A program made the translations under genes and the position numbers. A stretch of DNA of 64,000 bases from Sphyrna mokarran (Eukaryota). The first letter of the stretch is position 1. Each line of letters starts with the position of its first letter. The notes below the pieces were generated by a model. It made no database searches, was not told the DNA's origin, and saw nothing but the letters and a program-made list of their open reading frames with translations. The DNA is taken from contig JAGIQG010000011.1 of assembly GCA_024679065.1 (NCBI GenBank), positions 74,400,001 to 74,464,000 of the forward strand, read 5' to 3'. This document shows positions 3,361 to 64,000 of the stretch, in pieces.

Positions 3361-3504
3361 AGTTGTAGTGTTATCTACAGTGTTATCAAATGGCAGAACA
3401 GGTATAGGAGGTTGAATACCTTACTCCTGCTGCTAATATGTATGTTAATATACCCTTTTTGGAAGGATGAAATAGCTGAGCTAGATGACTTTTGTCATCC
3501 ACAA

Positions 3505-4075
3505 TTATTTGATTTATTATTGTCACACGGTATACAGTGAAAAATGTTGTTTCTTGTGCACTATACAGACAAAGCATACCATTATGTAGAGAAGGAAAAG
3601 AGAGTGCAGAATGTCATGTCACAATCATAGCTAAGGTATAGAGAAAGGTCAACTTAATGCAAGGTAGGTCCATTCAAAAGTCTGATGACAGTAGGGAAAA
3701 AGCTGTTCTTGAGTCGATTGTTATGTGTCCTCAGACCTTTGAATCCCTTTCCTGACAAAAGAGGGTGGAAAAGCGTATGTCGGCTGGGAGTCCTTGATTA
3801 TGTTGGCTTGCTTTTCCAAGGCAGCTGGAAGTATAGACACTGTCAAGCAATAGGAGGCTGAATGAGAATGCTTTCTATGGTGCATATGTAAAAGTTGGTG
3901 AGAGTCATAGTGGACATGCCAAATTTCCTCAATCTTCTGAGTATAGAGGCATTGGTGGCTCTTTTAACCATAGCGTTGGCATGGAGGGACCAGGACACGT
4001 TATTAGTGATCTGGACATCTAAAAACTTGAAGCTCTTGATCATCTCTACTTCTACTAATTTGCACACAGAAAGTG
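3505..4075 (-). mobile_element. Rex/Babar-type LINE 3' fragment
   Basis: Reverse complement of the 3' part of the element at 22240-23547. ORF 3843-4082 reads FKFLDVQITNNVSW...LRRLRKFGMS..TLTNFY.CTIESIL. Confidence 0.8.
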
Positions 4076-4811
4076 GAATCATAACTGAGTTGTTTATTTT
4101 GTGGCAAATGTATATTTATTGTGAGCAAGCTTTGTGGGTAAAATTGGTCAGGTAACGTGTAATGATCCTGTGCTGAAGAAGTGACCTGCTTTATATTACA
4201 CATGAATCCTTTCTGTTGCATTCAATGTTGTCCTTCTGTCTATATTTATCTATTATCCAACTCAACCTTGGTGTTCTTATCAATATTCTGAGTTATTGAA
4301 ATATATTGTGATATAGTTGTGCTGCATTGTAGAAGCTGAATATAGTAGTGAGAAGCAGCAATCATCAGACTTGATCAGCAATTCTGAGCAAAGACACAGA
4401 TATGACTGAAAGTTAGTCATTGTGCTCTGAACCCTTAAAAGTTATGTCACACAGAAGCCCGAAGGCACCATTGACAGTGAAGGCCTGTGATGTTCAATCA
4501 TTCCACTTCTGCTCAGGAGTCATTTGATCTTTGCACCCTGAGATTACTATCAAATAGAATCTAATTACACTCTTGTATGAAATGATGATATTGAATAAAA
4601 TTATATACCCAAGCCAGAGAAAGTCTTCCACAATGGAAAAAATGTTGTGCTATTTATGTAATTGCAGGTATTGAATTGTTCCCCCAAATATGGTGCAGTG
4701 TGCAGAACATGATGTAATAACATTACTAATAAGATATTTTCCTGTGAAGTTAACAGTACTGCATGATGCTGCTAAACTAAAATTAGCATTTTTTGCCTTA
4801 TTTAATAGTGA

Positions 4812-4955
4812 TGATGTGGAGTTGCTGGCATTGGACTGGGGTGGGCACAATAAGAAGTTAAAGCCCAACAGGTTTATTTGGAATCACAAGCTTTCAGAGC
4901 ACTGCCTCTTCCTTGATTCGCTGAGAAAGGCGCAGTGCTCCAAAAGCTCACCATG
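4812..4955. mobile_element. Palindromic Penelope-type element remnant (family A) with decayed hammerhead motifs
   Basis: Shares ggactggggtgggcac...aacaggtttatttgg...aagctttcagagcactgc with 34810-35020 and 39140-39795. Internal inverted repeat agctttcagagcactgc / gcagtgctccaaaagct. Confidence 0.65.
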
Positions 4956-5614
4956 GTAAAAGATATTAAGGGTCATACACTAATAATGCTCATTTAAGTG
5001 AAAAATACTATCTCTAACTATAATTTGGCACTTCCGTGGGAGAATATCTAATGTGAGAAAGGTGAGAGATAAATCCAAGTTAAATAATTGACATTGGTCG
5101 AACTCTTGGCCATAGCATTAGAGGGTTTTGAAGGGCTAGGGGTAGATGGCAGTGGCTACAATTGCACTCATTGGCTTTATTTCAGATATGGAGATCATGG
5201 ATATTAACTTGATTTCAGCGGTGTTCTTTTCCATTGCTCTTTAACTACCTGTGTACCTACCAAGGATGTAACAATGTCACCTCTTTGTGATATTGACTAC
5301 TTCTGTATTTTGAGCCTTTTGAAGTTGAACCAAATTAACAATGATGAGGTTAGACTTGGTTTGAATCATTAATCCACAGAAAGGTGAACAAGGGAGCATT
5401 AAGTTATTACTGCAGGTTGTTACAGGAATGATCACTTGTAGAATAAATTGCCAGAGTGGAAACACTAGAGAATTAAAAAAAACAGTTGAATGCTACATAC
5501 AATAATGGCTGTTTGCAATGACGAGTCAAATGGCTCCCTTAATCTGCAATTATCCTTTACACTGTTTCCACATGACAGCTCTCACTTGCCTCTATTGTCG
5601 CATCATGATTATGC

Positions 5615-14461: not shown

Positions 14462-15135
14462 ATAGAACATAGAACATTACAGCACAGAACAGGCCCTTCG
14501 GCCTTCGATGTTGTGCCGACCAAAATAAAAAGCAATGCCCCTCCAAACTAAACCATTCCCTTCTCTTCCATATACTTATCAATTAACCTCTTAAACGCCA
14601 CCAAACTTGGCGCATCTACAACAGCTGCAGGCAGGGCATTCCACTCCCTAATCACTCTTTGAGTAAAGAACCTACCTCTGATATCCGTCCTATAACTCAT
14701 ACCCCTTAATTTAAAGCTGTGTCCCCTCGTGCTAGCTTTCTCCATCCTAGGAAAAAGGCTATCACTGTCCACCCTATCTAAACCTCTAATCATCTTATAT
14801 GCTTCAATAAGATCCCCTCTTAGCCGCCTCCTTTCTAACGAAAACAACCTCAAATCCTTCAACCTCTCTTCATAGGACCTGCCCTCCATACCAGGCAACA
14901 TCCTGGTAAACCTCCTCTGTACCCTCTCCAATGCCTCCACATCTTTCTTATAATGTGGGGACCAGAACTGCACACAATACTCCAAGTGCGGCCGCACTAG
15001 AGTTTTGTACAGTTGCAACATGATGCTGCGGCTCCTAAATTCAATCCCCCTACCAATAAAAGCTAAGACTCCATATGCCTTAACAACTTTATCCACTTGG
15101 CTGCCTACTTTCAGGGATCTATTGACACATACATG
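14462..15135 (-). mobile_element. Young 5'-truncated CR1 3' end
   Basis: ORF 14548-15141 gives an uninterrupted CR1 ORF2 C-terminus (RPHLEYCVQFWSPHYKKD...WNALP). The tail (TTCTATG)n reads as agaacatagaacat at 14464. Confidence 0.93.
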
Positions 15136-15689
15136 ACACAATAGGCAGAAGTAATGATCAGTGGATGCTTTTCAGACGGGAGGAATGTTTTCTTAGGGTC
15201 AGTATTTGGATCATTATTTTTCCTATAATATGTTAATGACCTAGATCTTGGTGTATGGGGACAACTTTACATTTTGTGTCAGTTGCAAACTTTGGATGTA
15301 TTGTAAACTGAACAGAAAGACAGACAACTTGGTGGAGTGAGCAGATGGATGGCAGATGAAGTGAGGTGAGGTGATGCATTTTGGTAGGAAGAACATGGAG
15401 AGACAATATAAGGGATGGAATTCTCAACAAAGTGCAGGAGTAGAAGGACCCTGGGTGAGTATGAGCATAGATCATTGAAGGTGGAGAGAGCAGTTATTAA
15501 AGCATATAGTATTGAGTTTTATTAATAGGGCATAGAGTACAAGAGCAAGGAGTTATGCTGAACTTATACAAGTCAGCTGGAGTATTGTGTACAGTTCTGA
15601 GTGCCACACTATAGGAAGGATATGAAGGCTTGGGAGAGTGCGCAGAAGATGTTTATAAGAATAGTTGCAGGGATGAGAAACATCAGTAA

Positions 15690-34809: not shown

Positions 34810-35020
34810 ACAGTAAAAAGTCTGACAACACCAGGTTAAAATCCAACAGGTTTATTTGGCATCATGAGATTTTGGAGCGCTGTTCCTTCATCTGATGAGT
34901 CCCGATGAAGGAGCAACTCTGAAACTTCATGGTACCCCAAATAAACCTGTTGGATTTTAACCTGTTGTCAGACTTCTTACTATGCCCACCCCAGTCCAAC
35001 ACCAGTATCTTCATATCATT
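34810..35020. mobile_element. Short palindromic Penelope-type element (family A), ~80-bp arms
   Basis: aagtctgacaacaccaggttaaaatccaacaggtttatttgg ... ccaaataaacctgttggattttaacctgttgtcagactt. Two decayed hammerhead cores lie back-to-back at the centre. Confidence 0.8.
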
Positions 35021-35882: not shown

Positions 35883-37704
35883 AATTTATCCCTCCCATTA
35901 TTCACAAGGCTGCTACAATACTTCAGAAAAGATATTTTAATTTTCCTCTCTGCATCTGGTGTAAATTTTCTTTTGTCAAATGGATTGCCCCATTTAATTA
36001 TATTGGAGCCAATGTTTTGTGGACAAACATCAGTTGAAATGAAAAGCATATGGATTATCTAACAGCATTAACAGATTTGAGGTTCACATTCAGCTGTCTT
36101 TGTAGGAAGCGAGCTCAGTCAAACAGCCAAAATACGCATGGCTAAAAGATGCACAGGTGAATGAAATGATAACAATAGGAATTAGAAGATAGATGTCAAT
36201 CGATTCTACTTAGTTTCAGAACACCAACTAAGTGTTATACGTCCAAAAGACAAAATGCAGGTACTTTCCAAGTCTGGGGCATCTCAAGCTGCAAGATGTA
36301 GCCCACCAAGTGCTAATTATCCAGGCGATAAACTCCAGTTCTAATATTGCATTTTGCCTCAATGTTAAAAATATATTTTCCAGGCAGCTAGTACCAATGA
36401 GAGTTTACTAAGAGTAGCCCGAGTTTTGTTATCCTTTCATCAGCATTTTTAAATCAGATATTCTAGAATTTAATTTGAACCTAATGTTCAATGCCATTAG
36501 TTTAGTTAACCACTGAAAATCAGAAAGTGACTGTTGCCGTAATCTGCTAATACACTTTCTCTGTCCGAGCACATCACCAGAATATGTTTTAGAATATTCT
36601 GAAATAGCTGTGGAAAACTATCACAAATGCTTATTTGTTCTCTTTCCGAAGCTGAAGAAGACAAAGCTGCAGACACAATTAGGACCAGAGTTCATCTGCA
36701 TCCTTATAGATTAGAATTAGTAGTGAAGTAAGATACAGTGCATGGTAATTACTTCCATGGTTACAGCTTCATTTATTAGGATCAGTATTTTATCAAATGT
36801 TTAATCCATCCTTTTAAATTCTGTAAACTGTTAAAAGACAAAACCTTTTTTAATGTGCCAAGAAATTTAAGTCAAAACAGATGAACTTTGATTTTAGCAG
36901 ACAATTGCAAGGACAAAATTATACAACATATATAAGTTATTCCATTATTATAGAATAAGGAAGGGCTGGATTGTATAGCAAAAATAACAGTGAAGGCAAC
37001 AGCACTAACTAAACATTATTTACATGGAAAATCAAACAGCAATAGCTGGCAAACTGCATGTGTATGTTAAACATGCAAACTGTTGTCCGGGGTACACTAC
37101 TTTCCCAAAATTTGCACAATCATGGTATTTATGCCAGACTCATCATTCGAATAAATGGAGCAACATGAAGTTGTAGTATTTACCTCAGGGATGAGAACTA
37201 AATCTCAGAAAAAGTTCTGACTTGTTGACTATAGTCCCTTTTAATCATATGGTAATTCTTAATCACTGTCAAACAACCTTCCTGGCACTGAGAAGTAACT
37301 TATACAACTGTGGACACTTAAGCCTTCAGATTTCAATTATTTATTGCTTAAGTTCTTTTTCATTTTTTTTTTAACGTCTTGTTGCTCTCTCACTATTCAT
37401 CCAATCTTTTTTCTCCCCTGTCCATTTTACTTTCTGTATCCAATTTGACATTTAATTCAATATTTGAACTGACATTACTTCGTTCAGGCTCTGTACTCTA
37501 ATGAATAATTCTTTCATCTGATTAGTTAAAGGGACACACACTTGCTTGTCTTATTCTCACAGGTCCCAGATCACATTAGAGGATGCTGCGTATTTTGACT
37601 CTCCTACTTGCAATAAGTCCCAATATCAATTCCTACAAAAAAATCTACGAGCATAATGAACAGCTGTCGCTATTTGTTCGTTGCTGAGGACAAAATGCAG
37701 TCAG

Positions 37705-38040
37705 AATAAGGGCAGCAAATACCTCATACCTCACAGTTCCAAGGATCTGAGTTCAATTCTGACCTTGGGTGACTGTAATGAGTTTGCATATTCTCCACAT
37801 CTGCATGGATTTCCTCTGGGTGCTTTGGTTTTCTGCCACATTCCAAAGATATGAAGGTTAGGTAGGTTGGCCATGCTAAATTGACCCTTAGTGTCCAAGA
37901 ATGTGTAGGTTAGCTATGATGAATGTGTGGTGCTGCAAGGATAGGGTGGAGGAAGAGGGCCTGAGTAAGATACTCTGAAAGAGAGTTAGTACAGATTCAA
38001 TGGGCTGAATAGCCTCTTCTGCACTGTAGGGATGCTATAA
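37705..38040 (+). mobile_element. HE1-like V-SINE (older)
   Basis: gagttcaattc B-box, V-core gagtttgcatattctcc...ttccaaagat and CR1-type tail. Confidence 0.75.
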
Positions 38041-38280
38041 GTTAATTATCCGTAACTTGAATTTTGTATCTCAGCCCTGTTCCCCAACTTTTGGTCTTCA
38101 AGACCTAGTTACTTCCGTTTTTAACTTGGTCTGCAGCAGAACAGGGTGATGAGGGTAAACAAAGAAAGTAACAAATGTTAACTCTAGTCTTGGAATATGT
38201 GACCTTTAAGAGCTGAAGATACTTTTAAAAGTAGACATCTTTAAAACTTTTGTTTAGTTAAGGTTCCTTTGTGCACTTAC

Positions 38281-38432
38281 CAATCGACATGTGAGGCCCA
38301 CTACAGCTACAGGCGTCTGAGCTGATTGAGCAACGTCGAGGAGGTTATAAAGCAAGGTCTGGTTCCTGTGATGAGCAAAGAGGTCAAATTCATCTAAGAT
38401 AAAAAGCACTGGTCTGCTGCTGCTGCGATTTC
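38281..38432 (-). CDS. ORC4: ORC4 exon (152 nt): (G)[50 protein letters not shown]
   Basis: tttctag|GA...TTG|gtaagt. Contains Walker B FILDEFD and the QTLLYNL motif. Confidence 0.97.
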
Positions 38433-39139
38433 CTAGAAATAAAAATATTAACTTTCAAAAAAAAAAATTGTATTTTTAAAAGCAGTTCTTTCAATGTTGC
38501 TCCATCCCCATTTATTCTCATTAAACATTTGTTTTGATTTTTGACAAATTGTCATTACTTGAGTTTTAAGTCAGGGCACTTGATAGTGAAGGAACAATGA
38601 TGCTGCCAAGGGGAGAACAGGATCAGCAGCTACAATCATGTTCAAGTTTCCACCTAAAAACTATCCAAACATATACACATCATTGTTCTATCACTGTTGT
38701 TGCAGCAGTGGAACAACCTTCGCCACACATTGCAGCAATTCAAAGCTGTCAAAACCATCTTCATGAGGTTGATAACTTCTGGCCTTTGTTAGCAGTGTCC
38801 ACATTCTAAATATATATTTTTAAAAAATACATACATACAATGTTGAACTACAAATCTGGACAATTAAGCATGACCATCAAATTCTTGCAGCTAACGGACG
38901 AGTTCCCAGTCACCTTCCTATCTCTGACTACTTGCTTATGATTTTCCTGCTTGGATCTGACATCCAGCTTTCCACACAATTCTCTGTGCTCATCCAGCAT
39001 TTTGCTCAAACCAGTAGGTTCCAGCACATTTACACTCATTTGAAATGCTGCAAGGCTTTAGAAAGATACAAGTGATGTTGCTTTTTGTTGCACAGAGTTG
39101 ATTTTGTAACCCAAAGGCTTTCTAATGGGATTATAAGAA

Positions 39140-39795
39140 TATGACGTGGCGATGCCGGCATTGAATTGGGATAAGCACATTAAGAAGTCTCACAACACCA
39201 GGTTAAAGTCCAATAGGTTTATTTGGTAGCACAAGCCACTAGCTTTCAGAGCACTGCTCCTTCATCAGGTGAGTGGGAGTCGTGTTCACAAGAAAGGCAT
39301 GTAAAGCATACATCATTTTACACGATTATGGTTGGAATGTGAGTTTTTACAAGTAATCAAGTCTTAAAGGTACAGACAATGTGACTGGAGACAGGGTAAG
39401 CACAGGTTAAAGAGATATGTATGTTTCCAGCCAGGATGGTTAGTGAGATTTTGCAAGCCCAGGCAAATTGTGTGCATTACAGATAGCCAAGTTTTGCACC
39501 TATGAGGACAGCCTCAACTATGATCTCGCATTCATGTCACACTATCTGTAATCCCCACAACTTGTGTGGGCTGGAAACAATACATATCTCTTTAACCTGT
39601 GCTTAACCCTGAATCCACTCACATTGACTCGCATTTCAACCATTATCTTGTAAATTGAGTTTGTATCTTTATATGCCCTGTTTGTGAACACGACTTCCAC
39701 TCACCTGATGAAGGAGCAGTGCTCTGAATGTTTGTGGCTTGTGCTACCGAATAAACCTGTTGGATTTTAACCTGGTGCTGAGACTTCTTATTACA
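39140..39795. mobile_element. Long palindromic Penelope-type element (family A), arms ~250-300 bp
   Basis: 39181-39480 is the reverse complement of ~39540-39792, e.g. taagcacaggttaaagagatatgtatgtttccagcc / ggctggaaacaatacatatctctttaacctgtgctta. Each arm has a hammerhead motif followed by AATAAA. Confidence 0.85.
39236..39272 (-). ncRNA. Minimal type I hammerhead ribozyme motif
   Basis: Minus strand reads TCAC-CTGATGA-A-GGAGC-AGT-GCTCT-GAAA-GC-TA-GTGG: both core boxes, 5-bp stem II, palindromic AGCT minimal stem III, UH site and 4-bp stem I. Confidence 0.7.
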
Positions 39796-39899
39796 AGAAT
39801 AAGCAGGATCCAAGCAGCTGGGTGGACCTAACGACTCCAATTTGGCAAGAAACTAAGGCAGCTGCCAGTAATTCAACAAAAACAACAGAGGAAAGAAAA

Positions 39900-40760
39900 G
39901 TCTAGTCACCTTTAGCTGCTTCATCTGTGACTCTCCTGCACCATAAGGTCATAAATAGGGAAGGCAGCTTCTGTGTGTTAGTGTTCTGTTCTGTTCCCAA
40001 CTCCTCAGCTAATAAAGCAGTCCATGCCAACATGTAGCAACGTTGGAAAACATTCAAGTTGAGTTAAGTGACATGTAACATCAATGCCACAGAAATGTCA
40101 GATAATGATCATTTCCAACAAGAGAGAAATTAACCATCTTCCCTTGTCATTCCTACTACAAAACCCCCAATAGGAGGCTGGGAATTCTGCAGCAAATAGA
40201 ACATAGAACATAGAATAAGCTATTTAATAATCATAGAATAATCTACTTGTGACTCCCAAAGCCTCTCCACAAGGCACAAGTCACTGCGACGGAATACTCT
40301 CTACTTGCCAGAATAAAAGTGCAGCTCCAAGAAAACTCAAGTAATTTGATAGGGTCCAGGATAAAGCAATTTGATTGGCACCTCATCGACCAGTTTAAAT
40401 GTTCACTCCCTCCATTGCTACGGCAGAGGTGTATACCATCTACAAGATGCACATGGAAATGTGTGTAGGGTTTTTTTAAACGGCGCCTTCCAAACATTGA
40501 CCTATCACCATGAAGAACCAGCACAGCAGACACAAGAGAAAACCACCTACCGTTCCCTTTCAAGTTCCCTTTCAACCCAGGGATTAAATCATCATTCATT
40601 CAGCATTGCTGGATTTAAAAAATTCAGTTTATCTAGCAGCACTGTGGATGTACCTATAGCAGGCAGACTGTACTCGTTAAAGAAAAGGCCTCATCATCAT
40701 TTTTCCAAAGGCAATAAATTCTTGCTTTGCCAGTGACACTCACATTCCATGAATTAAAGT
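39900..40760 (+). mobile_element. Ancient CR1/L2-like LINE 3' region
   Basis: Decayed RT C-terminal sequence ending gcaataaattcttgctttgccagtgacactcacattccatgaat, similar to the tail of the SINE at 50315-50655. Confidence 0.55.
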
Positions 40761-41499
40761 AAAAGAGAAAGCTATTGGTACTCAGGTTCAGAGGGAAACG
40801 CTGCCCCAGATAATGCTTCAGCATCTGTAGAACACTAACACCGTAATGAATAAAAAAAGTTCATGTAAATAAATTGACGAAACTTTTTTTTAATGTTGTT
40901 TTGAGGATTATATGAAAAAGAATATAGAGGGCAGTAAAGAGAAATGTTAAAATGGCCAGAAGAATTAGCTACCCTTTTACAAATAATGGTGTGGAATTTG
41001 TACATTCAGCCGAAATAAGCAGACTGGACTGCAGTTTAAAATCCCATTCAAAACACATACTGGTCTTCCAAAAGATAATTTGCCCATAAGATTCAGAGAA
41101 GACATCAGTCACGGTCCATTAAGCTATGCAGGTCTGCTTACCCAAAGATACTCTACTGAAGTGGCAACCATCCACTGACCTTAAATAGATCATTTCAATA
41201 AGAGAGAATATTACAACATGTCCTTTTATGTGAAAATACAGGTAAAAAAGAAAAATGGATTCAATTCATCCAAACAGGACATCTGGAAATAAAAAACTAA
41301 CAATCTAAATGAAGCCCAAAAGGTGGCTTATCCTTGTGCTAACAGATTCAAAGCACTTGACAGCATGCAATAGGAAACCATATTTGAAAGCAAAATTATT
41401 TAATATTGACTACCCAAGAATCAAGGGGGAGTTGCTCTTTTTACCACGAGATTTCAATACCTGTCAAATATCTTGTCCACCTTGGTTTACTCAGAATTG

Positions 41500-42850
41500 A
41501 AACATATAAACTAGAAGCAGGAGTTGGTCTTTCAATCTTTTGAGCCTGTTCCACCTTTCATTTTGATCATGGTTTTCTTCTCACCTCTGTTACAAAAGGT
41601 TTATGCCACCTTTGAGGATGACCCCTAGTTCTGCATTCCTCCACTATTGGAAATATTTTTTTTGAACCTACCCTATCTACCCCTGTTAGAATTTTATAAG
41701 TTTATGAGATTCCCTTTCTCTCTTCTAAACTCCACTGACTGTAATCCTAACCAACTTAAGTTTCCTCACATATGACAGATCTGTCATCCCAGGAATCAGC
41801 TTGGTAAATCTTCCCTGTACTCCTCCTATAGCAAGGACACCTTCCTCAGATAAGATACCAAAACTGCATGTAACTCTAGATATAGCCTGAGTGCCCTATA
41901 CAATGAAGGTGAACATACCATTTGTCTTCTTTACTGCCTGCTGGACTTGCATGCTTATTTTAAGTGACTGATGGATAAGGACACCAAGGTTTCACTGACT
42001 GTCCAATTTTCTCAAGTTACACTCATTCTAGTAATAACCTGTCTTCCTAGTATTGCTATCAAAGTGGATAACTTCATATTTATTCACATTATACTTCATT
42101 TGAAGTGCATATGCCCATATTCTCAGCTTCTCCAAATCATGCTGAAGCATCTCTGCAACCTCCTCATAGCTCACCCTCTTATCCAACTTTGTATCATCTG
42201 CAAATTTGGAATAATATGTTCGGCTCCCCATTCCAAATCATTAATGTATAATGTGAACAGCTGGGAACTTACTGCAGATCCCTGCAGAACCCCACTAGTC
42301 ATTGACTGCCAATCAGAAAAAGACCCATTTATGTCAACATTTTACTTCCTATCAGCTAACTAGCTTTCCATCCATCTCAAGACATAATCTGCAATCCCGT
42401 CTGCTTTAACATTATATAGTAGTACATTAGATCTTGTCAAAAGTCTTCTGAAAGTCTAAATAACCACATCCACTGGTTCTCCTTGGTTAACTCTACTAGA
42501 TAGATCCTCAAAAAATTCCAATAGATTCATCAAGCATGATTTCTGTTTTGCAAATCTATTATGACTTTGTCTGATTATAACACTGCCTTCCAAATGCTAA
42601 GTTATGAAATCCTTGATAATGGACTCTAGCATTTTCCCCAGTAGCAATGTTAAGCTTACGGGATTACAGTTCCTTGTTTTCTCTCCACTTCCCTTTTTGA
42701 ATAGCAGCCTTACATTAGCTACCCTCCAATCTGCAGGAACCAGTCCAGAGTCCAAAACATTTTGGAAAATAACCACTAATGGAGCTACTATTTCCAGGGC
42801 TACTTCCCTAAGTACTCTGGATGAAGATTATTAGGACCTGGAGATTCATT
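41500..42850 (-). mobile_element. Old CR1 RT/3' region
   Basis: Minus-strand ORF YSKFADDTKL..VS.EE..E.LQ.DL..L..WA...QM.YNV.K.EVIHF. Confidence 0.85.
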
Positions 42851-42859
42851 CTTCAATCC

Positions 42860-43210
42860 ACGGTGGCATAGTGGTTAGCACTTTGCCTCACAATACCAAA
42901 TACCCAGATTCAATTCCAGCTGTTGTTGACTGTCTGTATCAAATTTGTTCTCCTCATGTCTGCGTGGGTTTTGTATTATTGTTTCCTGATGGCAGATGTT
43001 CCAGTTTCCTGCCACACTCTAAAGATGTGCAGGTTGAGTGGATTGGCCATGATAAATTGCTCTTTAAAGTCCAGGAATGCGTAGGTTAGGGGGATGTGTG
43101 GGTTTATGGGGATAGGATAGAGGGGAGGGTCAGGGTAAGATACTCTGTCAGAGAGTAAGCGCAGAGGCAATGAGCCATATGACCTTCTTCTGCACTGCAG
43201 AGAATCCATA
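42860..43210 (+). mobile_element. HE1-like V-SINE
   Basis: cacggtggcatagtggttagcac, V-core and CR1-type tail. Confidence 0.8.
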
Positions 43211-44070: not shown

Positions 44071-44119
44071 CTTTTTTCAAAGCCTCAAGAAGAAAAGTAA
44101 GATTTTCAGCAAAGCTCCC
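44071..44119 (-). CDS. ORC4: ORC4 exon (49 nt): GSFAENLTFLLEALKK(G)
   Basis: ttgcag|GGG...AAAG|gtactt. Confidence 0.95.
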
Positions 44120-48021: not shown

Positions 48022-50222
48022 TTTGGTTGCAGAGAAGGTTCACTAGGCTGATACAGGAGATGAGGGTGTTGGATTATGAGGAGAGACTGAATAGGCTAGG
48101 TTTGTACTCTTTAGAGTTTACAAGGCTGAGAGGGGGTCTTATATTTACAGTGGAAAGTGATCTGGGAGGATGCACTACAAGTTTGCAGCAGACTGAAAAG
48201 ATTGAGTATGTAGATATTAGGGAAGCGGATGTGTTAGAACTTTTAAATGCTATCAAGATAGACAAGTCTCCTGGACCAGATGGGATGTACCCCAGGTTAT
48301 TGTGGGAGGTGAGGGATGTCATTGCAGAGCCCCTGGCGATGATCTTTGCGTCGTCGATGGAGACGGGGGAGGTTCCAGAGGATTGCGGATGTGGTCCCTA
48401 TTTTCAAGAAAGGGAACAGGGATAGTCCTGGAAATTACCGACCGGTGAGTCTGACCTCAGTGGTTGGTAAGCTGATGGAGAGACTTCTGAGGGACAAGAT
48501 TTACGAGCATTTGGAGAAGTTTAGGTTGATTAGAAATAGTCAGCATGATTTTGTAAAAGGCAGGTCGTGCCTTACAAGCTTAATTGAGTTCTTCGAAAAT
48601 GTGACTGAACACATTGACGAAGGAAGAGCAGTGGACGTGGTGTACGTGGACTTTAGCAAGGCATTTGACAAGGTCCCACATGCAAGACTTCTTGAGAAGG
48701 TGAGAGGCCATGGGATCCAAGGGGCTTTGGCCTTGTGGATCCAGAAATGGCTTGCCTGCAGAAGGCAGAGGGTGGTTGTGGATGGCTCTTTTTCTGCATG
48801 GAGGTCGGTCACCAGTGGAGTGCCCCAGGGATCTGTTCTAGGACCTTTGCTGTTTGTCATTTTCATAAATGACCTGGATGAGGAGGTAGAGGGATGGGTG
48901 AGTAAGTTCGCCGATGACACGAAGGTCGGTGGTGTTGTGGATGGTCTGGAGGGATGTCAGAAGTTGCAGCATGACAGGATGCAAGACTGGGCGGAGAAGT
49001 GGCAGATGGACTTCAACGTGGATAAATGTGTTGTGGTCCATTTTGGCAGATCCAACGGGATGAACGAGTACACTATCAAAGGTAGGAGTCTTAGCTGTGT
49101 GGAAGAGCAGAGGGATCTTGGGGTCCGGGTCCATAAGACTCTCAAATCGGCCTCCCACGTGGAGGATGTGGTTAGAACATAGAACATAGAAAGCTTACTT
49201 GGTTAAGAAAGCTTACGGTGTACTGGCCTTCATTCATCAAGGGATTGAGTTCAGCAGTCAGGAGGTAATGCTGCAGCTTTATAGGACCCTTGTCGGACCA
49301 CACTTGGGGTACTGTGCGCAGTTCTAGTCACCTCACTAATAGGAAGGACGTGGAAGCTATTGAAAGGGTGCAGAGGAGATTTACAAGGATGTTGCCTGGA
49401 TTGGGAGGCATGCCTTATGAAGACAGGTTGAGGGAGCTGGGACTGTTCTCCCTGGAGAGACGAAGGTTGAGAGGCGACCTGATAGAGGTTTACAAGATGT
49501 TGAGAGGAATAGATAGGGTGGACTCTCAGAGACTATTTCCCAGGGCTGAAATGGTCGCGACGAGAGGGCACAGATTTAAGGTGCAGGGAAGCAAGTACAG
49601 AGGGGATGCTAGGGGAAAGTTTTTCACTCAGAGGGTGGTGAGTGAATGGAATCGGCTGCCGTCGGTGGTAGTCGAGGCGAACTCGCTGGGGTCTTTTAAA
49701 AGACTTCTGGATGAGTATAAGGGATCCAGTGGGATTGGGGGTTATAGATAGGTCTATGGCTGGGTAGGTTTTGATGTGTTCGGCACAACTTGTGGGCCGA
49801 AGGACCTGTTTGTGCTGTAGTATTCTATGTTCTATGTATAAGATAATGAACGGGATGGATAGGGTAAAGATGGAGACACTCTTCCCACGTAGCAAAGATA
49901 ATAGGACTATAGCAGGATAAAGGGCACAGCCTCAAGATTAGCGGGGGGTGTGGTTCAGATCAGAGTTGAGGAGGAATTTCTTCACGCAAAGGGTGGTGAA
50001 TCTTTGGAATTCTCTGCTTGAAGTGGTGGAGGCTTCCTTGCTGAATATGTTCAAGTCAAGAGTGGATAGGTTTTTGATTGACAAGAGAATTAAGGGTTAC
50101 GGGGAGAAAGCGGGAAAGTGGTACTGAACCACTACAGATCAACCATGATCTTTTTGAATGGCGGGGCAGGCTCGTGGGGCTAGATGGCTACTCCTGCTCC
50201 TATTTCTTATGTTCTTATGTTC
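48022..50222 (+). mobile_element. Host CR1 3' fragment (48022-48142 plus 49836-50222) split by a younger CR1
   Basis: QRRFTRLI..MR.L.YEERL.RLGLYSLE..RLRGGLI resumes at 49836 as YKIMNGMDRV. Tail ttcttatgttcttatgttc. Confidence 0.88.
48143..49835 (+). mobile_element. Young 5'-truncated CR1 (RT domain to 3' tail)
   Basis: ORF 48346-49182 has DFSKAFDKVPH, GVPQGSVLGPLLF and KFADDTK. Tail attctatgttctatg. Very similar to 63630-64000. Confidence 0.95.
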
Positions 50223-62529: not shown

Positions 62530-64000
62530 CAGGATATGGCCATTACAGAGACTTGGATGTCTCAGGGACAGGACTGGGTACTACAGGTCCTGGGATTCAG
62601 ATCCTTCAGGAAGGACAGGGAGGGAGGCAAAAAGAGGTGGTGGAGTGGCACTGTCGATCAGGGACAGTGTCATGGCTGCAGAGAAGGTGGATACCGAGGA
62701 GGGAATGTCTACGGAGTCTCTATGGATGGAATAGCAAAGGGTCGGTGACATTGCTGGGTGTATTCTATAGGCCGCCCAATAGTGACAGGGAAGTTGAGGT
62801 GCAGATAGGGAAACAGATACTGGAGAGATGTAGAAATAACAGAGTTGTTGTGATGGGAGACTTCAATTTCCCAAATATCGACTGGAATATCCCAAGAGTA
62901 AGGGGTTTGGATGGGGAGGAGTTTGTTAGGTGTGTTCAGGAGGGTTTCCTGACACAGCACGTGGACAAGCCTACAAGAGGAGAGGCTGTACTGGACCTGT
63001 TACTAGCTAATGAACCAGGACAGGTGATGGATCTCTCGGTAGGAGAGCATCTTGGGGATGGAGATCATAATTCTATCTCCTTCCCCCTTGCATTGGAAAA
63101 GGATAGGATCAGGCAGGCTAGGAAGGTGTTTGTCTGGAATAAGGGGAAATATGGAGACATCAGGCAGATGTTGGGGTGAATAAACTGGAAGGAGGTGTTC
63201 TTAGGGAAAAGCACAGAAGGAAGGTGGCAGATATTCAAGGAATGCTTGTCTGGAGCTTTGCACGACAACGTTCCGGTGAGACAAGGAGGTTTTGGTAGGA
63301 CGCGGGCACCGTGGTGCACGAAGGCTGTGGTGAACCTAGTCAGGAAGAAAAGAAAGGTGTATAAAAGGTTCAAAGAGCTAGGAGATGTTGGGGATCTAGA
63401 GAAGTATAAGGCTTATAGAAGAGAGCTTAAAAAGGAAATTAGGAGAGCCAGAAAGGGTCATGAGAAGGCCTTGGCTGGTAGGATTAAGGAGAATCCCAAG
63501 GCCTTCTACAAATATGTGAAAAGTAAAAGGATGAGAAGAGAAGGGATAAGACCTATAAAAGGTGAAGGGGGAAAAGTCTGTATGGAACCGGAAGAAATGG
63601 CAGAGGTGCTTAATGAGTACTTTGCCTCAGTATTCACGGTGGAAAGTGATCTGGGAGGATGCACTACAAGTTTGCGGCAGACTGAAAAGATTGAGTATGT
63701 AGATATTAAGGAAGCGGGTGTGTTAGAACTTTTAAATGCTATCAAGATAGACAAGTCTCCGGGACCAGATGGGATGTACCCCAGGTTTTTGTGGGAGGTG
63801 AGGGATGTCATTGCAGAGCCCCTGGCGATGATCTTTGCGTCGTCGACGGAGACGGGAGAGGTTCCGGAGGATTGCGGATGTGGTCCCTATTTTCAAGAAA
63901 GGGAACAGGGATAGTCCTGGAAATTACCGACCGGTGAGTCTGACCTCAGTGGTTGGTAAGCTGATGGAGAGGCTTCTGAGGGACAAGATTTACAAGCATT
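62530..64000 (+). mobile_element. Young CR1 ORF2 (APE endonuclease to RT N-terminus), runs off the window end
   Basis: AITETW, GVFYRPP, VVMGDFNFP.IDW, PTRGEAVLDLLL, GDHNSI, KENPKAFYKY and KSPGPDG. A few frameshifts and one stop. Confidence 0.95.

Follow-up and report, generated by a model that had tools for sequence, protein, structure and literature searches.

Minimal hammerhead ribozymes of Penelope-like retroelements (PLEs) were described by Cervera and de la Pena (2014, PMC4209133), who place them in the pLTR and give them an unpaired base between A9 and 10.1, a palindrome at positions 15.2–16.2, a short stem I and a G10.1-C11.1 pair listed as highly conserved. Most copies in that account are truncated, and pairs on opposite strands are described at spacings of 100–700 bp. 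The same paper reports a single S. mansoni motif without cleavage and dimers with low activity, and a 2026 preprint (10.64898/2026.07.22.740005) gives cleavage for 1 of 9 Xenopus dimers. According to Frangieh et al. (2024, PMC11167929), a PLE hammerhead from Anolis cleaved only with the PLE protein, and no RNA ends mapped to its cut site. At the scale of whole insertions, Craig et al. (2021, PMC8557442) describe EN+ PLEs as an inverted 5′-truncated copy with a 30–40 bp tail at one end, and give a Cys motif as the mark of the Neptune and Nematis clades.

The motif studied here lies in an ORC4 intron within the window, the whole 64-kb stretch of DNA that was analyzed. It resembles the motifs of PMC4209133 in its pLTR setting, unpaired base between A9 and 10.1, palindromic 15.2–16.2, short stem I, truncation and opposite-strand partner (here ∼460 bp away), and differs from them in carrying G10.1-U11.1 where theirs is G-C. 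By the features tested, it belongs to the PLE minimal hammerheads as a decayed copy within a standard inverted insertion, and both these hammerheads and their opposite-strand pairs are already published kinds. The hosts named in the passages of PMC4209133 consulted are fishes, coelacanth, Xenopus and reptiles, with cartilaginous fishes not among them; our literature search found no study of PLE hammerheads in sharks, though the supplements of that paper and of the preprint may list some. With the Neptune/Nematis-type insertions of PMC8557442 the locus shares the inverted copy, the one-end tail and the C-terminal GIY-YIG, with a CX4CxxC motif in the ORF of a sister subfamily, and unlike them it retains 22 ORF codons only. 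The Poseidon element of Anolis carolinensis (PMC11167929) also combines a pLTR hammerhead with a tail, but it belongs to a clade without the Cys linker, and its need for protein was assayed whereas the window copy is known from sequence. The amniote intronic hammerheads, RECK and others (PMC6155905), are likewise type I, intronic and of retroelement origin; they are reported as conserved across classes with tertiary contacts, in contrast to the window motif, which is decayed, one of tens of thousands and accompanied by a masking mirror arm. The preprint further reports that tandem retrozymes are depleted from introns, a layout that differs from a head-to-head pair. The literature search returned nothing on point about whether intronic retroelement hammerheads favour the sense orientation.

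A minimal hammerhead in one arm of an inverted insertion

Read directly, the minus strand carries a minimal type I hammerhead in which none of the 11 core bases is missing, and every letter is as the sequence-only reading of this DNA had given it. Its parts, read from the sequence, are as follows.

39236–39272, minus strand: hammerhead motif (intact core, additional A following A9, stems I and II of 4 and 5 bp, AGCU)
39272–39269, minus strand: stem I 5′ strand, UCAC
39268–39262, minus strand: core CUGAUGA
39261, minus strand: extra A, between A9 and 10.1
39247–39244, minus strand: core GAAA, with GC next
39241, minus strand: U16.1
39240, minus strand: A17, with the predicted cut after it
39239–39236, minus strand: stem I 3′ strand, GUGG
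39223–39218, minus strand: AAUAAA, 12 nt past the motif, part of the element's conserved 3′ flank

One of the 4 bp of stem I is U-G, stem II is GGAGC/GCUCU closed by an AGU loop and opened by a G-U pair, and the palindromic AGCU occupies the place of stem III, which is absent. The core (CUGAnGA, GAAA and UH), stems I and II, the extra base between 9 and 10.1 and the palindrome at 15.2–16.2 are thus all those of a PLE minimal hammerhead, while G10.1-C11.1 is replaced by G-U. That G-U is a mark of decay, the G-C pair being typical of the class and not strictly defining. A descriptor composed of the core, a 3-bp stem I, a 4-bp stem II and a palindromic loop III matched once in the 64-kb window and in none of 300 dinucleotide shuffles, and the motif is not a chance match. 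In an Rfam scan of 37000–42000, none of the matches at E≤10 was to a hammerhead family; the six weak matches to unrelated families in that interval were taken as chance.

The motif belongs to a 650-bp insertion, made of two head-to-head 5′-truncated pLTR ends of a Penelope-like retroelement, whose anatomy and orientation in ORC4 can be observed directly.

38281–38432, minus strand: 152-nt ORC4 exon, downstream of the host intron (human ORC4 match, E=2e-24)
39131–39140, plus strand: target-site duplication, left-hand repeat (10 bp, or 12 bp with shared end bases; 1 mismatch)
39141–39486, minus strand: left arm, a 5′-truncated pLTR in ORC4 sense that holds the motif (similarity to genome copies)
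39141–39180, minus strand: 40-nt tail, on the left arm only (arm comparison)
39483–39790, plus strand: right arm, an inverted pLTR copy with the tail absent (27-nt and 32-nt deletions)
39483–39548, plus strand: final 22 codons of the RT/GIY-YIG ORF (68% identity with the frame end of L184, a sister-subfamily copy)
39701–39737, plus strand: partner hammerhead, ORC4-antisense (core broken: GAAT)
39791–39800, plus strand: target-site duplication, right-hand repeat (10 bp, or 12 bp with shared end bases; 1 mismatch)
44071–44119, minus strand: 49-nt ORC4 exon, preceding the host intron in the gene (bounded by AG/GT, in frame with the adjacent exons)

ORC4 lies on the minus strand, and the motif sits gene-sense in a 5.6-kb intron, ∼0.8 kb upstream of the 3′ splice site. 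A genome search gave 5,435 candidates, 40 of which were scored, and 29 other genome copies were 84–87% identical to the left arm over ∼290–350 nt; the copy L002 was 86% identical to it over 352 nt. The two arms overlap by 4 nt (39483–39486) and differ at ∼1 base in 10, and the right arm is without 27 and 32 nt that are present both in the left arm and in L002. In the partner hammerhead A15.1 has become U at 39729, and the AGCU palindrome of its loop III has also been lost. Much of what the sequence-only reading had said of the locus stands on this anatomy: the gene-sense position between the 49-nt and 152-nt exons, both of which could be placed; the AAUAAA about 12 nt downstream; the identity of the motif as a minimal Penelope-like hammerhead, on which the core, the extra A, the palindrome and the pLTR setting agree; the change of GAAA to GAAT in the partner; and the retention of a full core by the gene-sense arm alone.

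The protein-coding part of the family was read from the sister subfamily, in which L184 holds an uninterrupted 637-aa frame (3399–5312, plus strand) with RT, Cys linker and GIY-YIG. RVT_1 matches it at E=1e-9 and GIY-YIG at E=2e-4 with 22.1 bits, just under the Pfam cut-off of 22.6. Between RT and endonuclease the frame has CX4CxxC, which fits the CX2-5CxxC pattern of the Neptune and Nematis clades and is seen in the sister subfamily, not in the window copy; the L184 subfamily shows 72–80% DNA identity to pieces of the window copies. The features of EN+ PLEs are present, namely a pLTR linked to an RT-bearing ORF that ends in GIY-YIG (22 codons of it in the window) and an inverted 5′-truncated copy with a one-sided 30–40 bp tail. 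The layout of a non-LTR retrozyme is absent, the ends forming a head-to-head pair with no long direct repeat in 36000–43000. By these features the insertion is an EN+ Penelope-like element, probably Neptune-like (or Nematis-like) given the Cys motif of its sister subfamily, a clade assignment set from features rather than from a tree. Over 1.57 kb the L184 region matches another copy at 96% DNA identity, so its subfamily is young.

The insertion itself is not recent and is common to at least one related organism, since a contig from the relative X5 spans the left junction: it starts in unique intron and enters the element by 52 nt, and it shows 60 differences and 10 gaps over 750 nt. Contigs from X11 and X12 reach ∼20 nt into the tail, which is below the 31-letter threshold, and the flank contig of X2 ends at 38969; the relatives' contigs reach the tail but end before the motif. 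At the right junction, X5 and X12 are without unique cover at 39818–39858.

Abundance, decay and covariation of intronic copies

For an unbiased count we took 1.89 Mb inside large genes, treated throughout as intron, in 11 blocks (three of them from one gene), each oriented through exons that match Laminin G or ion channels. The pLTR ends were detected by their 3′-flank profile alone, so detection is independent of the core. Counted directly in this way, gene-oriented intron holds 225 pLTR ends (∼120 per Mb), with the core kept in 53. Thirty of the 225 keep core and stems as good as those of the window copy (∼16 per Mb intron), and 23 of these 30 retain G10.1-C11.1 and are thus better than it. 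Extrapolated from introns to 2.77 Gb, these densities correspond to ∼330,000 pLTR ends and ∼44,000 window-grade motifs. Head-to-head pairing is the usual arrangement, with 142 ends (63%) falling into 71 such pairs, 64 of which carry the tail on exactly one arm. The extra base is A in 45 of 46 intact cores. Several subfamilies in the oriented blocks share the core while their stem II sequences differ and stem I is swapped; across them position 17 varies among A, C and U, and any base occurs at position 7.

The ends show no orientation bias, 108 being sense and 117 antisense to the gene. Intact cores were found in 30/108 sense and 23/117 antisense ends (p=0.16), and window-grade cores in 17/108 and 13/117 (p=0.33). 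Among the 71 inverted pairs, neither arm had an intact core in 43, both had one in 9, only the sense arm in 14 and only the antisense arm in 5 (14 versus 5, p=0.06), and in the 47 pairs with both arms spanning the motif the corresponding split was 11 versus 5 (p=0.21). Intact cores thus lean to the gene-sense strand in every pooled tally without reaching significance, and a modest effect is possible. There is no purge of gene-sense cores in introns; frequent cutting of pre-mRNA would predict such a purge, so this counts against it. The sequence-only reading had implied a special status for the motif and for the sense-only intact arm, and neither is supported by these densities or by the 14 of 71 pairs with the same arrangement and 5 of 71 with the reverse. 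The densities, the self-masking pairs and the lack of significant strand selection provide a baseline for judging such matches in this genome.

Decay of the core is conspicuous at the CpG that spans C11.1 and G12, which reads CG in 58, TG in 34 and CA in 38 of the copies spanning it. Decay to CA destroys G12, whereas decay to TG yields the G-U pair of the window copy, in keeping with the proposed origin of that pair by CpG decay. Because the G12-killing CA is as common as the harmless TG, G12 is freely lost after insertion, as observed directly among the copies. Faster loss of G12 on the sense strand (CA 21 versus TG 10, p=0.07) was rejected, as it was not repeated in 0.29 Mb of new intron (CA 2 versus TG 6; pooled 23 versus 16, p=0.34). 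In 20 unbiased close copies, non-CpG core sites diverged less than the flank as a whole (7/180, 3.9%, versus 158/1719, 9.2%; p=0.012); they were not significantly below the 3′ flank taken alone (54/873, 6.2%; p=0.29), and no lower core divergence was found in 33 search-selected copies (p=0.17). We read the difference from the whole flank as probably due to subfamily differences in the flank.

The stems behave differently. Among 44 distinct intact cores, the 10.1-11.1 pair is G-C in 29, G-U in 14 and A-U in 1; stem I pair 2 is A-U in 25 and G-C in 12; stem II pair 2 is G-C in 25 and A-U in 13; and stem II pair 3 is G-C in 14, A-U in 14 and C-G in 8 (p<0.001 against shuffles for the last three pairs). 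Stem II pairs 2–4 and stem I pairs 2, 3 and 5 covary beyond shuffles, with figures inflated by related copies, while stem I pairs 1, 4 and 6 and stem II pairs 1 and 5 do not in these 44 cores. Compensatory stem changes across subfamilies can thus be observed directly, and since the stems covary in this way, the source elements seem to have kept a real ribozyme. The sequence-only reading had regarded a family with neither preferential core conservation nor stem covariation as evidence against its proposal; covariation is present, but inserted copies lose G12 freely. We infer that selection held the ribozyme in active source elements and not in inserted copies.

Predicted folding of the motif in ORC4 RNA and competing explanations

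Transcription of ORC4 runs from high to low coordinates, and the complement of the right arm is transcribed before the motif. In thermodynamic predictions made without proteins, editing or splicing kinetics, a fold of the two arms pairs 24 consecutive motif bases, C3 through A14, with 39705–39728, running from C3 to the base before G12 and then on through A14. Stems I and II have probabilities of 0.0 in this fold, and a forced hammerhead lies +60.4 kcal/mol above it. Removing the partner arm still leaves a predicted penalty of +6 to +7 kcal/mol for the hammerhead, with stem I at p≤0.001, because local hairpins outcompete stem I. Truncated transcripts are predicted to have the core already paired on emergence. 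Over 751 nt, pairing of the two arms is predicted to yield a long duplex of ∼−370 kcal/mol, with the AAUAAA mostly inside. The sequence-only reading overlooked this probable masking, in which the opposite arm, transcribed first as its complement, is predicted to sequester the motif. An opposite-strand arm cannot serve as a partner for dimer cleavage. The window offers no dimer partner in cis, since the remaining four of its five pLTR ends have broken cores and only the copy at 39236–39272 is intact.

The locus is therefore very probably a decayed minimal hammerhead in one arm of an inverted Penelope-like remnant within an ORC4 intron, predicted to be paired with its mirror arm and likely inactive, and the motif likely does not cut ORC4 RNA. 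The element would have inserted as a head-to-head double pLTR. Polymerase moving along ORC4 would make the right-arm complement first, the left arm would zip onto it while emerging so that the catalytic core never folds, and splicing would remove the intron as usual; inactivity in place would follow from the zipping of the core into the mirror-arm duplex. The ribozyme probably worked only in tandem source elements, either dimerized or helped by the element's protein. Three observations point against this explanation: the gene-sense lean of intact cores, which is in the direction of the sequence-only reading and not significant; the lower divergence of non-CpG core sites than of the whole flank in the 20 unbiased copies; and the persistence of the insertion, common to at least one related organism. 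As best explained, the motif is of little importance, since remnants of this described retroelement class number in the hundreds of thousands. If it did cut ORC4 pre-mRNA, a transposon ribozyme would be acting on a replication-licensing gene, and host-directed activity of a PLE hammerhead would be directly testable.

Any effect of the insertion on ORC4 could instead come from the long dsRNA hairpin, as an editing substrate or by delaying splicing, or from the AAUAAA, rather than from catalysis. The size of the predicted duplex and the sense orientation of the AAUAAA speak for such an effect, which we nevertheless consider unlikely, given that 71 such hairpins are tolerated in 1.89 Mb of intron with no orientation bias and that the AAUAAA is itself mostly within the predicted duplex. 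Catalysis might still occur at a low level if the hairpin were sometimes opened, by a helicase or A-to-I editing, and a PLE protein or a second copy assisted in trans; a small share of ORC4 pre-mRNA would then be cut as an unselected side effect. We hold this to be quite improbable. In its favour, the core is complete with its 11 bases and the cut triplet is a permitted one, a cofold of the motif in isolation has two copies cross-pairing through the AGCU palindrome, a related PLE hammerhead is assisted by protein, and the open 637-aa RT/GIY-YIG frame exists in the genome, if in a sister subfamily. Against this stand the ∼60 kcal/mol cost, the replacement of the conserved G10.1-C11.1 pair by G-U (for which the literature search, including the portion of PMC544870 consulted, gave no rate effect), the outcompeting of stem I even without the partner arm, and the failure of introns to purge gene-sense cores.

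A broader form of activation in trans would have a PLE protein or an unwinding activity switch the hammerheads on, so that host pre-mRNAs such as that of ORC4 are cut upon de-repression of the family and the sense-only excess among pairs marks retained switches. We give this very little credence; if it were true, it would concern ∼44,000 hammerheads as complete as the window copy, many of them gene-sense in introns. Domestication as an intronic ribozyme regulating ORC4, in the manner of RECK, with selection keeping the sense core while the antisense one decayed, is extremely improbable. It would accommodate the intact sense and broken antisense arms, the weak genome trend in the same direction and a left junction common to a relative in which 60 of 750 positions of the flanking intron are different, and domesticated intronic hammerheads are on record (PMC6155905). 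The window copy, however, has CpG decay inside stem II and its loop, departs from the family majority at 14–18 of 150 sites, has no stem III and retains its masking arm, and the core survives in any case in roughly one end in four.

The window holds several other repeats. At 34811–35018, in another ORC4 intron, a related subfamily has left a further head-to-head pLTR pair, which is shorter and has both cores broken, and a core-like string at 34892–34928 (plus strand) was rejected as a chimera across the junction of this pair. A third pLTR copy, at 4811–4911 (minus strand), also has a broken core. One possible RNA run over the locus yielded mostly repeat-derived pieces and one 65-nt piece, at 40636–40700. 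Frames at ∼14550–15170, 42000–42830, 48300–49200, 62600–63950 and 1000–2500 resemble what we take to be decayed LINE reverse-transcriptase pieces, and the stretches at 48.1–48.5 kb and 63.5–63.9 kb look like two copies of one family.
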